Assembly (NCBI GenBank): GCA_025839675.1
Contig: CP104013.1
Coordinates: 3,210,001 to 3,242,000 of the forward strand
Length of the DNA: 32,000 nt
Reading direction: 5' to 3'
Source: Candidatus Lokiarchaeum ossiferum
Lineage (GTDB): Archaea > Asgardarchaeota > Lokiarchaeia > Sigyniarchaeales > Promethearchaeaceae
This document shows positions 21,123 to 27,236 of this stretch, piece after piece. A model generated the notes under the pieces. The model saw nothing but the letters and a program-made list of their open reading frames with translations, searched no databases and had not been told where the DNA came from. The first letter of the stretch is position 1. Each line of letters starts with the position of its first letter. A program made the position numbers and the translations under genes.

Positions 21123-21542
21123 ATGAACGATCCCGAATGTTTATTTTGTAAAATTCTTGCTGGTGAGATCCCTAGTTACAAGGTTTTTGAATCAGAATTT
21201 ACCCTTGCTTTTTTAGATATTGCACCTGTAAGTGAAGGCCACACAGTTGTGATTCCTAAAAATCATTATTACAATCTTCTTGATATCCCAGAAAATGAGA
21301 TTCTACCATTTTTTAATGATTTAAAAACAGTTGCAAATCTTATCAAGACAAAACTTGGTTGTGAAGGATTTAATATTGTTCAAAATAATTTCCCTGCGGC
21401 GGGGCAGGTGATTCCTCACTTTCATTTTCACATTTGGCCTCGTATTTCAAGTGATAAACTCTCTCATTTTCAGCGAAATCCTGAAATTGCAAATAAGGAA
21501 GAGATTGAATCAGTTTTTAAGAAATTTACCAATGATTATTAA
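21123..21542 (+). CDS. HIT-family (histidine triad) nucleotide hydrolase/transferase
   Basis: CLFCKILAGEIP N-terminus and the histidine triad HFHFHIWPR. The ATG at 21123 is preferred to the TTG at 21114. Confidence 0.88.
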   Translation: MNDPECLFCKILAGEIPSYKVFESEFTLAFLDIAPVSEGHTVVIPKNHYYNLLDIPENEILPFFNDLKTVANLIKTKLGCEGFNIVQNNFPAAGQVIPHFHFHIWPRISSDKLSHFQRNPEIANKEEIESVFKKFTNDY

Positions 21543-21781
21543 AAACCAATAATCTTATTCTTTCGTAAAAACCAATTTGGAAGTTGAATCACCTGAGTTT
21601 CATCTAAAATTAACGAAAGATCATTTTTTACAATATATTTTGGCACAATTATTCTTCGTTTGAGAGTATCGACATAAATATGAAAAAATTTTGTATCAAT
21701 TTCTTTAATTTTACCATTAATTTGTGAATATTCTTCTCCGTACAATATCATAGTCAATAGCTTATCTTGAACATCCGACAA
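21539..21781 (-). CDS. hypothetical small protein
   Basis: 80 aa ORF, convergent with the HIT gene and overlapping its end by 4 nt. No motif recognised. Confidence 0.35.
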   Translation of the reverse strand: MSDVQDKLLTMILYGEEYSQINGKIKEIDTKFFHIYVDTLKRRIIVPKYIVKNDLSLILDETQVIQLPNWFLRKNKIIGF

Positions 21782-22059: not shown

Positions 22060-24507
22060 TCAGAGAAAATTTTTGATTGAAAGTTGTTTAGGAAGACTTT
22101 GCCCGATAAATGGAAGATTACATTGTAATAACTGCATTTTTATCTCATTGGACAAGACAAATGGAACCATATTAACAAAAGCTCGCAATAAAAGTTCTTT
22201 ATACTTCCCAATATCATAATTCTTACCGCGTTCACGATAAATTTGAACAGGTAAAACTCGATCCATTTTATTAGGGGCACAATCATCTACAATAATAAAC
22301 GAGATTTTTTGTCCTGCTCCTAGCGGTAAACCCGCCATTTGTAAATGCTTGGCTGCTATTGCTTGATAGTTCAACACACTATATTGTTCTGGTCGACGAG
22401 TCAAACGAATATTTACTGCCAGATCATCAATACTAACGGTACCCGATTCTAAATATGCAACATATTTTTTAAACACAGGAATAATAGTCTGTTTCAACAG
22501 CTGATCAAAGTTATGCCTGTAAGAGGAAGAGCCAATAACACGCATTAATTCTTCTTGAAATTTTTTAATTAAAATAGGTGAATCATGCCTTCTAAGCTCT
22601 AAGCCTCGAACTTTTGCTTTTCCTGAAGGTTTTATCCCCCAATAACGATTAAGAGCACCAATTAATGGATCTGCTTTTGTTGGTAAAAAAGAAATAAACT
22701 GGAAGTAATCTTTCGTAGAATCATAAGAAATGGGAATATTTGTTCTTTGTGTGATTTCTTGAGTAATTTTTTGACATTCTGCATGAAAATTCTCCATACT
22801 CATTGATTGAGGGGATTGGACGTAGAGTGAATCAACAATTCCATGTAAGTAGTGAATTCCATGTTTTTCAACTATCTCCATACCATCTATCAGAAATTCT
22901 CGAGCATAAGCACAAACTGCTTGATGAGCCTCAATACGGCCAAATCGAGCATTTCGAAATCCAAGATATCCAAAGCAAACAACTAATATCCATTTCAGCG
23001 CAGTTTGCATTTGATCATATTTCTTTTTTATTCTTCCGTGGCTGGAAATTGCCAATTTTTTGTAATGCATGCGCTTAGTTAACGGGAGACGCAAGGAAAG
23101 AGGCACAACCCCAGTTCGTTTTTTACACGTATAATAAGATAATCCTGGAACTTTGATACCATCTTGCTTACAGCAAGGGCAATTTAAGGTTTCAGGAGAA
23201 ACATTATAAAAAACCATCAAGCTAGGATACATTGACGTGAAATCGAGTTCAGCAACCCGATCAAACATCCCAACTTGAGGGTTTAAAATGTGTCCCCCTC
23301 GATCTGAAAGCAAAAGATTCCATCCATTTCGGAAGATTTCTGCATTCTTTTTTTCCTCTGGAATTAAAATTCCTTGCTTAAAAGCGTGATAAAACTGAAT
23401 TGACTGAAGAGCTCCCCCAATAGTTATACGTGTAAGTCTCTGGAGAGTGATATATGAAATACGCGCGATCTCAACGATTCCATTAATATTTCCATCATCG
23501 AAATGCAAAGATCCCATGATGCTAGAATTAATGTGAAGCCTTCCATTCAAATAGAACTGATTTTTGCTTCGATGGATGATTTGTCCGTAAGAAAAATAGC
23601 TATCAGCACCATTCATCCTGAACCGGGTTGATTTTAAAGGAGTCGAATCCCGAGAAAGTGTGAATGAATTGATAAGATCCAAAAAAGAACAACGAGATAA
23701 CAAGTAAGGAAAAATAGTTTCATCACCCTTATGTGTAAAAATGACATCTGGATCGATACGCTTTATTGCAACTTGCAAGAATTCAAGAGTTTCATATTCT
23801 GAAGATTCTTGAATAATTATTTGTTGAGCACCATGTTCATCCTGGAAAATCATATCACGCGAAAATCTTAGAGAAAGATCGATAGGTGAACTATCGGGAT
23901 CTAATGTTAATTTTATACTATGGAGAGAATCAGAAGTGCTAGTCACAAAATTATGTGATTTCGATTGAATTTCCATCCAAATAATTCGTAATGGAGGAAG
24001 ATCATAGTCAATAGCTTCATTTGAATCAGCTAATTGTATAGAAGAAATAAACAATTGTGAGTTTTTTTTCTTGAAACCAACCCTGACTTTTCCAAATGGA
24101 AACAAATCTGTTGAATAAAAGAAGATCTGTACAAGAGGCAAATCTACATTGAACAGTTCAAAAATGTTCAACCTTCGAATCGTTTCTACTGTTTTTTTAA
24201 ACTTAAAAGGAGATTGAACAACTATTTTTAGACAAGGGGAGGGAATAATTGCTTCAGCTCTAATTCTGCGATCACATATATTAACTTCACAAATATCAGG
24301 ATGTGATCTGATCTGAGCTATTTTTTCTTGATATTTTTGTTCAGAAGATGGAGAAATACTAAAAGGAAAAGAAGCATAGAAAAAAGGATGAAAGGAACGA
24401 ATTCCTGCAATTACATCACCTGAAGGAAGTTTAAGCCAAATCTTAATTCCTTCTTTGTGGATTTGGGCATCCAAAATCCATGCATCATATAATTTTGAAG
24501 ATTTCAT
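22060..24507 (-). CDS. polB: family B DNA polymerase, divergent: exonuclease motifs lost, polymerase motifs B and C altered (PolB2/'inactivated PolB'-like)
   Basis: 815 aa, collinear by eye with archaeal PolB. The N-terminus is WILDAQIHKEG.., and motif A is intact (LDFTSMYPS). Motif B reads KWILVVCFGYLG instead of KxxxNSxYG, and motif C reads LHGIVDSL instead of YxDTDS. The Exo I position reads IIWMEI instead of FDIE, and Exo II reads KGDETIFPYL instead of NGDxFDxPYL. The Exo III region is largely absent. The C-terminal QLSIKNFL is a PIP box. Confidence 0.85.
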   Translation of the reverse strand: MKSSKLYDAWILDAQIHKEGIKIWLKLPSGDVIAGIRSFHPFFYASFPFSISPSSEQKYQEKIAQIRSHPDICEVNICDRRIRAEAIIPSPCLKIVVQSPFKFKKTVETIRRLNIFELFNVDLPLVQIFFYSTDLFPFGKVRVGFKKKNSQLFISSIQLADSNEAIDYDLPPLRIIWMEIQSKSHNFVTSTSDSLHSIKLTLDPDSSPIDLSLRFSRDMIFQDEHGAQQIIIQESSEYETLEFLQVAIKRIDPDVIFTHKGDETIFPYLLSRCSFLDLINSFTLSRDSTPLKSTRFRMNGADSYFSYGQIIHRSKNQFYLNGRLHINSSIMGSLHFDDGNINGIVEIARISYITLQRLTRITIGGALQSIQFYHAFKQGILIPEEKKNAEIFRNGWNLLLSDRGGHILNPQVGMFDRVAELDFTSMYPSLMVFYNVSPETLNCPCCKQDGIKVPGLSYYTCKKRTGVVPLSLRLPLTKRMHYKKLAISSHGRIKKKYDQMQTALKWILVVCFGYLGFRNARFGRIEAHQAVCAYAREFLIDGMEIVEKHGIHYLHGIVDSLYVQSPQSMSMENFHAECQKITQEITQRTNIPISYDSTKDYFQFISFLPTKADPLIGALNRYWGIKPSGKAKVRGLELRRHDSPILIKKFQEELMRVIGSSSYRHNFDQLLKQTIIPVFKKYVAYLESGTVSIDDLAVNIRLTRRPEQYSVLNYQAIAAKHLQMAGLPLGAGQKISFIIVDDCAPNKMDRVLPVQIYRERGKNYDIGKYKELLLRAFVNMVPFVLSNEIKMQLLQCNLPFIGQSLPKQLSIKNFL

Positions 24508-24578: not shown

Positions 24579-25403
24579 TTATCGCATCAATTTTTTTGTA
24601 AAAAATGAATCCAAAGTAGTTGTTTGAGATTTAACACCACCCCGTGATGAATTTAACCTCCCCTTTTTTATTTCAGCAGGTTTCCAAGATCTTTGCACAT
24701 TATATGAATAAAAAGGATGTTGATCTAAAGAATATTCAATAAAACGTGGAAATTCTCGAACTCCAATTATAATATTGCTGAAATGTGAAAGTAATTTTCC
24801 TCCAGCAGGCCGATAATTTGACTTAGAATGACGAGGTCCTGTTAAAACGATGATTGGATTAGAATGCTGGGTAATACGTTTCAATCCCAAAAAAATCCGA
24901 TTTAAATCGTTATATGTTTTGATATTCAACAAATTTATCTGTGAGGATGAAACATTTTGAGAGAGATTTTCTTCGAACATCGATGTTAATCCAGCAACTA
25001 AGATTAAATCAATCTTTTCGTCAGTCTGAAGTATCAACTTCTCCTCCATCAATTCAACCATTTGATTCCAAGTAAAAGCCCGAGCAACGAGGATTTGCTG
25101 GAGAACAAATTCAGGATTAAGACCATTTGATATGGCCATCTTTGAAATCCAATATGGATTGAAACGGTTTTCTCCATCAACATATAATACACGATTCGAA
25201 GCTAATCCACCATCAACAGAAGATTTGAATGAATTCACAGCCGTTTTCATCAATATTACAGAAAGGTGTTGTTTGGCCCCATGTAGAAAATGAACCAGCC
25301 CTGGAAGAAATCCTCCTCCTAACAGTTTATTCAAAAAAATATCACCGCTGGACAATGAATGTTGTTTATTAATTTGGCTTAAATATTCAGATGCAGAAAT
25401 CAT
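24579..25403 (-). CDS. RadA/Rad51-superfamily paralog with degenerate Walker A and Walker B (predicted ATPase-dead)
   Basis: 274 aa. RadA/Rad51 landmarks are LNKLLGGGFLPGLVHFLHG (cf. LDxLLGGGIxxGxITExxG), RVLYVDGENRFNP (cf. YIDTEGTFRPER) and ILVARAFTWNQ (cf. YARAYNxxHQ). The P-loop position reads HGAKQHLS (no GxxGxGKT/S), and the Walker B position reads LILVAGLT (no Asp). Confidence 0.72.
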   Translation of the reverse strand: MISASEYLSQINKQHSLSSGDIFLNKLLGGGFLPGLVHFLHGAKQHLSVILMKTAVNSFKSSVDGGLASNRVLYVDGENRFNPYWISKMAISNGLNPEFVLQQILVARAFTWNQMVELMEEKLILQTDEKIDLILVAGLTSMFEENLSQNVSSSQINLLNIKTYNDLNRIFLGLKRITQHSNPIIVLTGPRHSKSNYRPAGGKLLSHFSNIIIGVREFPRFIEYSLDQHPFYSYNVQRSWKPAEIKKGRLNSSRGGVKSQTTTLDSFFTKKLMR

Positions 25404-25793
25404 ATTGAGGAAACACTATCCAACTATAATCTATGTTATATCATCAAGAAGGGTCTGTGAAATATTAAATATGGTGAGCCGACAGAATTTTTTATTTACT
25501 TAAAATCCGTCAATTTCTCCCCATCAATTTGAAATAGCCTAAAAAACAAATTATTTAGCTACAAACATTCATAGGGGTTCGTTAAATGCAAGAGAGAGAT
25601 AACAATGGAAGTAGAAAAAAATATATGCGATTTCAAAAGAATAAATGTCCGACAAAAAATAGACAAGCCATTTGAGAATTAAAAATTCAATATATTCCAA
25701 ATAGATTAACAAAAAATTATTGTCCATTTTTTTTTTTCCATCAAGTGTTCACAAATCTAAATTTTGAAATCCGAAAGTGCATTGTTCATTCAT

Positions 25794-27236
25794 ATGAAAT
25801 CAAATTTTGCGTTTATTGGTTTTATGGGGACAGGAAAATCGACCGTAGCAAAATTATTCTCTCAACAATTTAACCTAAAATTTGTGGAAATTGATGCAGT
25901 GATTGAAAAAAAGGCAAAAAGAACAATTCCTGAAATTTTTCATGAAGGAGAAGAGATATTTCGGAAATATGAATCAGAAGTTATTATTGAAAGCACAAGT
26001 TTAAGCAATACTTGTATATCTTGCGGCGGTGGAGCCATATTAGATAAAATCAATAGAGAGTATTTATCAAAATCATCCATAATCATATTGTTAGAAGCGA
26101 CACCCTCCACAATTTTTCAACGAATAAAAGAAGAAGGGATTAAAAAGAGACCCCTTCTTAATAAAGAAGATCCGATTAAAGAAATTACAAATTTACTCAT
26201 TTCACGACAAGAATTATATCATGAAGTGGCAGATATAATAATTAGTACAGATGACAAGACTTTAGAACAAATTATCAATGAAATTGTCGAAAATCTTGAA
26301 AAAAATGATGATGAAAACTTGGTTGATGTGGATTTGGAAGTAGCATTTAATCAAATTAAAGAAGAAATCTCTCAAAAAAAAGAGACTAATAAAAAAACGA
26401 TCAATTATTATTGCAAAATCTGTGGAAAAAAGCAGGAAATGAAGAAAACTAAATTTTGTAAGGTTTGCAAAATTCCTGTATGCAAAAAATGTCGGAATGG
26501 TCAATTTTGTATTAATTGTTGGGTAAATTTCAAAGAAGATCCTCGAAAAACAATCAAATTAACTCAAACTTTGGCATTATTTATTCCCTTTATTACTGTT
26601 TTTATTTTGTTAAGTGATGTAATTCGATATTTTATTACAAATATAGTAATTATTTCTATTTTACTCCTGATTTCCTTTGTTGCAAGGTTTCAGATAATTA
26701 AAAATCCAACAAAGTTCATTGAACTGAGCTGGTGGCAAAATACTCAAACTGAAAAATATCAAGAAATTTTGAATCCTTTGACACCTGAACGTTATATAAA
26801 TAAAGAATTGATCCAAAATTATCAAGATCAAAAACAAAAAAAAATCAAGAAACTAAAAAATTGGATTGAAATGGGTGATCAATTAGCAAATATTCCAATC
26901 CCAGCCCATTATGAAGATAAAAAACTGCATAAGGGAGATATTTCAGAATATTCAGAAGCTGAATTAGTTTCGACAATTGAAAATCTTGACAAAAATGCAG
27001 ATAGAAAGAAATGGGAATATTTGTTAATTGACAAACCTTGTCCAAAGTGCCAATCTATTATTAAATTTGCAGATTTTTGTATTGAGTGTAATGAGAGATA
27101 TTGCCCTAAATGTGGAGAAAATTCCGATTCGTATTCTTTGAAATGTATTTGTGGATATAATTTCGAACCACTCCCTAGCGAGTTCATGAAATGGACTAAT
27201 ACAAATGAAGTTTTATTCCAAAAAAAAAAAGATTGA
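25794..27236 (+). CDS. AroK-type (P-loop) shikimate kinase domain fused to an 8-Cys zinc module, two TM helices and a C-terminal double zinc ribbon
   Basis: The N-terminal roughly 170 aa carry Walker A GFMGTGKST, EID, GEEIFRKYE, CGGGA and KKRPLL, all in the order of AroK/AroL shikimate kinases. Next comes CKICG-x11-CKVC-x4-CKKC-x5-CINC, then hydrophobic segments LALFIPFITVFILL and IVIISILLLISFVA. The C-terminus has CPKC-x9-CIEC-x4-CPKC-x10-CIC. The ATG at 25794 is preferred to the TTG at 25764. Confidence 0.75.
   Translation: MKSNFAFIGFMGTGKSTVAKLFSQQFNLKFVEIDAVIEKKAKRTIPEIFHEGEEIFRKYESEVIIESTSLSNTCISCGGGAILDKINREYLSKSSIIILLEATPSTIFQRIKEEGIKKRPLLNKEDPIKEITNLLISRQELYHEVADIIISTDDKTLEQIINEIVENLEKNDDENLVDVDLEVAFNQIKEEISQKKETNKKTINYYCKICGKKQEMKKTKFCKVCKIPVCKKCRNGQFCINCWVNFKEDPRKTIKLTQTLALFIPFITVFILLSDVIRYFITNIVIISILLLISFVARFQIIKNPTKFIELSWWQNTQTEKYQEILNPLTPERYINKELIQNYQDQKQKKIKKLKNWIEMGDQLANIPIPAHYEDKKLHKGDISEYSEAELVSTIENLDKNADRKKWEYLLIDKPCPKCQSIIKFADFCIECNERYCPKCGENSDSYSLKCICGYNFEPLPSEFMKWTNTNEVLFQKKKD

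Follow-up and report, generated by a model that had tools for sequence, protein, structure and literature searches.

The PolB2 family of archaeal DNA polymerases was described as "inactivated" by Rogozin et al. in 2008 (PMC2527604). Feng et al. in 2022 (PMC8764526) named the form that motif C takes in this family, HxxxD in place of YxDTD, together with an invariant D(K/R) motif, and included a Thorarchaeota "AsgardPolB2" in their alignment. In that study, Dpo2 of Sulfolobus islandicus and Sulfolobus solfataricus was a robust polymerase without 3′-5′ exonuclease activity that extends mismatched and lesion-paired ends, is accurate on undamaged DNA, and is a poor inserter opposite lesions; carrying HxxxD as well, it incorporates nucleotides as actively as Dpo1. 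An association of PolB2 with partner proteins was first noted by Makarova et al. in 2014 (PMC4104785), and Timinskas, Timinskas and Venclovas in 2025 (PMC11791011) described a PolB2-iRadA-PPB2 operon and modeled a heteropentamer of PolB2, iRadA, and a PPB2 trimer, with multimer models that, going by the main text, do not include the lineage considered here. Here, we examine a PolB2-type gene of Candidatus Lokiarchaeum ossiferum within a window of 32,000 nucleotides (positions 3,210,001 to 3,242,000 of contig CP104013.1, or G000:C1:3210001-3242000) from a single-contig genome of 6,035,313 bp with a G+C content of ~31%. Coordinates are those of the window unless they are given with G000:C1.

The gene, polB2, is an intact frame of 815 codons at 22060 to 24507 on the minus strand. 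Pfam, a phylogenetic tree, and a structure prediction agree that it encodes an 815-amino-acid family B DNA polymerase of the PolB2 type, the predicted catalytic subunit of a PolB2 mutasome; the Pfam match to DNA_pol_B is clear (1.3e-28), and that to DNA_pol_B_exo1 is weak (1.3e-7). A preliminary description of this DNA placed the open reading frame (ORF) and nearly all of its motifs correctly and proposed either a structural pseudo-polymerase or a low-fidelity polymerase with altered substrates, but it did not recognize PolB2, a family already in the literature along with its partner proteins. We identify the gene as the Lokiarchaeal ortholog of archaeal PolB2 (Sulfolobus Dpo2 type) and, with a probability of roughly 85%, consider its product most likely to be an active, proofreading-free extender in damage tolerance.

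Motifs were aligned by phmmer/HMMER against solved Thermococcales PolBs in the PDB and in a 122-sequence MAFFT alignment that included the genome's own canonical PolB. Motif A (LDFTSMYPS, residues 421 to 429; 23221 to 23247, minus strand, as for all motifs below) is intact, as first reported, and keeps both the metal-ligand Asp422 and the steric-gate Tyr427. Motif B is present in its PolB2 version, KWILVVCFGYLG (residues 505 to 516; 22960 to 22995), which keeps Lys505 and Gly513 and has Val in place of both Asn and Ser and Phe512 in place of Tyr. It had been said to have lost its Asn, Ser, and Tyr; this is right for the first two, whereas the third is a conservative change rather than a plain loss. 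Motif C likewise has the PolB2 form (LHGIVDSL, residues 554 to 561; 22825 to 22848) with the HxxxD signature H555-G-I-V-D559, where His555 stands for Tyr and Ile557 for the first Asp of DTD while the second Asp, D559, is kept, in line with the preliminary reading. The altered KxY region also noted there is NRY in the alignments (residues 620 to 622; 22642 to 22650), in place of the KKY/KxY primer-contact motif. Upstream of motif A lies DRGG (residues 402 to 405; 23293 to 23304), the PolB2-specific invariant D(K/R) motif. A cluster of four cysteines, CPCC...x14...C (C443, C445, C446, and C461; 23125 to 23181), is conserved at 90% or more in the PolB2 family and is partly common to the canonical paralog, which has C-x4-C...C there. 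Its position is that of the disulfide pair in Thermococcales PolBs, and the cluster could form a metal site or disulfides.

The exonuclease motifs are lost throughout. At the Exo I position, WMEIQ (residues 177 to 181; 23965 to 23979) lacks the DxE carboxylate pair. WMEI had been proposed as the counterpart of FDIE, and the loss of Asp stands, but the register was one residue off: the best alignment sets MEIQ against canonical YDIE, with Asp replaced by Glu179 and Glu by Gln181. DxE is absent in either register, and this column shows no conservation within the PolB2 family. The Exo II remnant KGDETIFPYL (residues 260 to 269; 23701 to 23730) compares with NGDNFDxxYL and, as recognized earlier, has lost its Asn (now Lys260) and its catalytic Asp (now Ile265), while the scaffold G261-D262...P267..L269 is kept. 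The Exo III segment from GRLHIN to EIARISY, previously put at about 20 residues, spans ~18 by alignment, versus ~70 in canonical enzymes, and contains no YxxxD. Canonical Exo I to III or DTD residues at shifted positions, which the preliminary description had named as the finding that would speak against it, were sought by phmmer alignment to PDB structures, MAFFT alignment with the canonical paralog, and regular expressions, and none were found.

The substituted residues are themselves conserved. Per-residue counts were based on 121 representatives of 50%-identity clusters, in which W506 (114), F512 (120), and H555 (112) are near-invariant. Among the retained residues, D422 and D559 are present in all 121 and G513 in 120; Lys505 is conserved too, the Tyr427 position holds Tyr in 115 sequences and Phe in 6, and D402 of the D(K/R) motif is invariant in the alignment of the representatives. 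Family signatures recur among 256 relatives, of which 241 carry HxxxD, 244 carry D[KR]GG (absent from the canonical paralog), and 211 carry KWxLVxxFGY, with YxDTD in a single one. As aligned, this motif pattern is far beyond chance, and the changes read as a PolB2 family signature and not as decay. Several PolB2 representatives (P0140, P0147, P0169, P0172, P0176, P0193, P0208, and others) are 1,200 to 1,340 amino acids long, and in these the match to the query breaks at residue 512/513, within motif B (F512-G513), as would fit an intein insertion.

A search of the whole library returned 609 clusters below 1e-30. Orthologs at 40 to 91% identity occur in Lokiarchaeia (including Promethearchaeum syntrophicum) and in Thor-, Hod-, Hermod-, and Sigynarchaeota, where their public names are solely "DNA polymerase domain-containing protein" or "hypothetical protein." Named relatives in species genomes belong to Asgard archaea, Bathyarchaeia, Nitrososphaerales, Hadarchaeota, and several bacterial phyla, and haloarchaeal megaplasmid genes annotated as "type B DNA-directed DNA polymerase" also match. 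This spread agrees with the published PolB2 distribution. One such gene, on the Halobacterium salinarum plasmid NZ_CP146626.1 (L094, 340784 to 342529), has TnpB genes and an orc1/cdc6 gene as its flanking genes and no iRadA or PPB2 annotated within 3 kb, which agrees with the published association with orc1/cdc6. A maximum-likelihood tree (LG+G4, quick search) was built from the target, 26 further PolB2-type sequences, and 8 canonical PolBs of the same genomes, a set that does not contain Sulfolobus Dpo2 or a curated PolB1/PolB3 collection. Within it, the 27 PolB2-type sequences including the target split from the 8 canonical PolBs with a Shimodaira-Hasegawa-like approximate likelihood ratio test (SH-aLRT) support of 100, and the target forms a group with its Promethearchaeum and Harpocratesius counterparts, its nearest neighbors in the tree, for which the SH-aLRT support is again 100.

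The AlphaFold2 (AF2) model, computed from a 62-sequence alignment, has the full archaeal PolB fold (predicted local distance difference test score 90.3, predicted template modeling score 0.89). In Foldseek, the whole model aligns to archaeal PolBs, with replicative-state complexes of KOD/9N as the best matches (TMq 0.72, TMt 0.77 to 0.79). Over residues 175 to 275, the prediction is confident for the strands and helices at the core of the exonuclease fold, so that the model points to a full-size but catalytically dead exonuclease fold retained in this lineage. Confidence is lower for residues 380 to 401, a short strand, loop, and helix that precede D402-R403. In published models, a strand-helix plus D(K/R) element of PolB2 binds iRadA and the PPB2 arm (PMC11791011), and the Lokiarchaeal segment at ~380 to 401 matches this element.

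PolB2 is not the replicase of this organism, since genes for a canonical PolB, PolD (DP2), one Y-family polymerase, and one PCNA are present elsewhere in the genome. Being the only PolB or PolD of the genome was the second finding that the preliminary description had named as decisive against it, and the reading of polB2 as the sole replicase is thus rejected. The canonical PolB (P0122; 987 amino acids, G000:C1 ~1,931,509-1,934,469) keeps DIE, NGDNFD, YNLMD, KxxxNGSYG, and YGDTD; its identity to PolB2 is only 24%, and that over no more than the polymerase domain.

Both described partners of PolB2 are encoded in the genome. Immediately upstream, separated by 71 bp, lies a gene for a 274-amino-acid protein of RadA/Rad51 fold (24579 to 25403, minus strand; Pfam Rad51, 3.3e-14). 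Aligned with the two full RadA proteins of the genome, it lacks the N-terminal helix-hairpin-helix domain, Walker A, and Walker B: the P-loop is degenerate (HGAKQHLS, without GKT/S; 25260 to 25283, minus strand), and at the Walker B position, DLILVAGLT (24984 to 25010, minus strand), Asp is replaced by Ala. To judge from these residues, the gene is iRadA and its product a RadA with a dead ATPase. Homologs of iRadA adjoin PolB2 in 54 of 80 related loci. A second iRadA-like paralog, 236 amino acids long and 36% identical to that of the window, lies at G000:C1:5741010-5741666 (+) (L115:6002-6712), beside a transporter of the ABC/FecCD iron type and a small ORF with an RNase III domain; it has lost Walker A and B and has no tail of the clamp-binding kind.

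In the described mutasome, PPB2 is a small helical protein with a conserved N-terminal MGRT arm whose gene belongs to the same operon. The window itself holds no PPB2, and the 360 bp that precede iRadA contain no plausible ORF. When the whole genome was scanned for small ORFs with an MGR[TS] start, the scan located a 92-amino-acid gene at G000:C1:2278767-2279045 (+) (L005:6768-7046), MGRTLPSFRPALD..., with the N terminus MGRTLPSFR and the published Arg3 and Arg9. Since its homologs stop no more than a few bases from where PolB2 begins in 61 of the 80 related loci, this gene is, as far as its sequence tells, the PPB2 ortholog; the order iRadA-PPB2-PolB2 occurs in 42 of these loci. In most other lineages the gene adjoins polB2. 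In the present genome, however, PPB2 lies ~955 kb from polB2, in no shared operon with it and alone among unrelated genes (FtsX-like, zinc-ribbon, ACS/CODH-like, and TatD). Of the sister lineages, Promethearchaeum likewise has iRadA adjoining PolB2 and no PPB2 at the locus, and Harpocratesius has PolB2, an iRadA-like gene, and PPB2 all unlinked. A second PPB2-like gene at G000:C1:1549052-1549282 (+) (L116:5002-5289) is 34% identical to the first, has no polymerase or RadA neighbor, and begins MVVTHPFK... from an internal ATG without the MGRT arm, in agreement with the published remark that MGRT is kept in only one of duplicated PPB2 copies.

PolB2 ends in QLSIKNFL (residues 808 to 815; 22063 to 22086, minus strand), directly followed by the stop codon, which fits the PCNA-interacting protein (PIP) box pattern Qxx[ILM]xx[FYW][FYWL]. 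Such a motif falls within the last 20 residues in 92 of 121 Asgard-type PolB2 sequences versus 9 of 135 wider representatives. A PIP-like tail, QTTTLDSFF (24600 to 24626, minus strand), is present on iRadA as well, and Asgard iRadA orthologs end in a conserved xT[LI]Dx[WF][FI]. Since clamp motifs are rarely found on both PolB2 and iRadA (PMC11791011), the lineage, with PIP-type tails on both, looks like one of the rare exceptions.

Activity, an extender role, complex formation, and PCNA binding we infer by analogy with the characterized systems. A Y-family or replicative polymerase would first insert opposite a lesion or create a mismatch, and PolB2, distributive and without proofreading, would then extend the distorted primer end; like Dpo2, it would be accurate on undamaged DNA and a poor inserter opposite lesions. 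From the residues retained, Asp422 of motif A and Asp559 of motif C would serve two-metal chemistry, Lys505 of motif B would contact the triphosphate, and Tyr427 would act as the sugar gate. RB69-type enzymes use the motif B Tyr to contact the nascent pair in the minor groove. Because of this contact, the change of Tyr to Phe together with HxxxD may make the check on the primer-terminal base pair less strict, to which the replacement of the motif B Asn by Val and the loss of the exonuclease may also contribute. By homology to the published models, PolB2 and the iRadA of the adjacent upstream gene would be produced together and assemble with the PPB2 trimer, and both C-terminal PIP motifs, that of PolB2 and that of iRadA, would recruit the complex to PCNA.

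Some observations weigh against this interpretation. The polymerase activity is extrapolated from Sulfolobus enzymes that are much shorter, distantly related, and outside our alignment and tree. No orc1/cdc6 gene lies near polB2, and with PPB2 outside the operon, the three-subunit complex is less certain than it would be with adjacent genes. In addition, the best NCBIfam matches of PolB2, two "type B DNA-directed DNA polymerase" models, do not reach their curated cutoffs (336.6 versus 516 bits for NF004416 and 300.1 versus 692 for NF004418); both are narrow equivalog/subfamily models, and the Asgard branch is outside their coverage. Among the control genomes, one does pass the NF004418 cutoff.

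Among other explanations, a catalytically dead structural pseudo-polymerase would act with iRadA as a scaffold or as a subunit that binds DNA and PCNA on behalf of recombination proteins or another polymerase. Several losses would fit such a role: motif C is without its Tyr and its first Asp, motif B is without its Asn and Ser, and no exonuclease carboxylate remains. The inactivation of its partner, iRadA, would fit as well. Yet a scaffold would have no need of both metal-ligand Asp residues, kept in 121 of 121 representatives, or of the conserved Lys505, Gly513, and steric-gate Tyr, and Sulfolobus Dpo2 with the same HxxxD is as active as Dpo1 (PMC8764526). We therefore consider this explanation, one of the two offered in the preliminary description, to be improbable; it corresponds to the 2008 view (PMC2527604), since overturned for Sulfolobus. 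The accompanying statements that the enzyme would not proofread and that catalysis was not excluded accord with its placement in PolB2, whose Sulfolobus members are robust and exonuclease-free (PMC8764526), and would by analogy extend to the Lokiarchaeal protein.

The other proposal, low fidelity and altered substrates, comes close to a further alternative, that of an error-prone inserter, rather than an extender, with a changed choice of substrate (ribonucleoside triphosphates [rNTPs] or damaged or modified deoxynucleoside triphosphates). Changes at the nucleotide-contacting residues of motif B (Asn and Ser to Val and Tyr to Phe) and the lack of proofreading would be expected of such an enzyme. 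However, the steric-gate Tyr, kept here and in most of the representatives as counted above, argues against use of rNTPs, and low fidelity is at odds with Dpo2, whose specialty is extension of mismatched and lesion-paired ends. Characterized PolB2 enzymes show good discrimination when the template is undamaged and are poor at insertion opposite lesions (PMC8764526), and a separate Y-family polymerase is available for insertion. This explanation thus seems to us less plausible still than a dead scaffold. A decaying pseudogene copy of a replicative PolB, to which the loss of many canonical motifs might point, is excluded for practical purposes by the intact frame, the orthologs across Asgard lineages, the conservation of the substituted positions, the confident structure model, and the conserved C-terminal PIP box.

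Apart from iRadA, two neighbors of polB2 may be mentioned. An 80-amino-acid ORF on the same strand, 278 bp downstream (21539 to 21781, minus strand), is a putative gene without a Pfam match; it was considered as PPB2 and rejected, as it has no MGRT start and is not a PPB2 homolog. Oriented divergently from the iRadA-polB2 pair is a gene at 25764 to 27236 (+) that encodes a shikimate kinase domain (SKI, 4.2e-43) fused to a Cys-rich C-terminal extension ~300 residues long.

The finding is real and already known in its essentials, the motif pattern having been in print since 2008 and its biochemical explanation since 2022. What is added is modest and consists of lineage details, namely, the dispersal of PPB2, the retained exonuclease fold, the dual PIP tails, and the extra paralogs. 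Correct annotation gives an Asgard genome from a cultivable lineage a complete two-step translesion toolkit of Y-family inserter, PolB2 extender, iRadA, PPB2, and PCNA. The exonuclease fold, dual PIP tails, and dispersed partners could also interest work on the evolution of multisubunit extenders near the root of eukaryotes. A more speculative possibility, which we regard as rather unlikely, is that these features, with the paralogs, reflect a rebuilding of the PolB2 mutasome in Lokiarchaeales, possibly into alternative PCNA-tethered complexes that differ in composition and as a step toward a multisubunit extender bound to the clamp, the design of eukaryotic Pol zeta.

Compared with known systems, the Lokiarchaeal protein resembles Sulfolobus Dpo2 and other PolB2 enzymes in its HxxxD and D(K/R) motifs, in the loss of the Exo I to III carboxylates with retention of the motif A Asp and the second motif C Asp, in its coexistence with canonical replicases, and in its linked iRadA gene. 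Sulfolobus Dpo2 is described as the smallest member of the family, its exonuclease domain being heavily decayed; the Lokiarchaeal protein differs from it in its length of 815 residues, in its well-folded N-terminal and exonuclease-like domains, and in its canonical C-terminal PIP box. With the canonical PolB P0122, it shares overall fold, domain order, and motif A, while in P0122 the exonuclease and polymerase motifs are all intact. The likeness to the PolB2-iRadA-PPB2 mutasome extends to the presence of all three genes, an iRadA without the N-terminal domain and ATPase residues, a PPB2 with the MGRT arm and Arg3/Arg9, the strand-helix and D(K/R) segment of PolB2, and clamp-binding motifs; the differences are that the genes are dispersed, with only iRadA and PolB2 adjacent, that PIP-type tails are found on both of these proteins, and that further iRadA and PPB2 paralogs, the latter without MGRT, lie elsewhere in the genome. 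Finally, a functional analogy has been drawn with eukaryotic Pol zeta (Rev3) (PMC8764526, PMC11791011), likewise a family B enzyme whose exonuclease domain is inactivated and which, in multisubunit form, takes over extension once an inserter polymerase has acted. Pol zeta, however, keeps the canonical DTD motif C and has Rev7, Pol31, and Pol32 as accessory subunits, and nothing here is evidence of direct descent.

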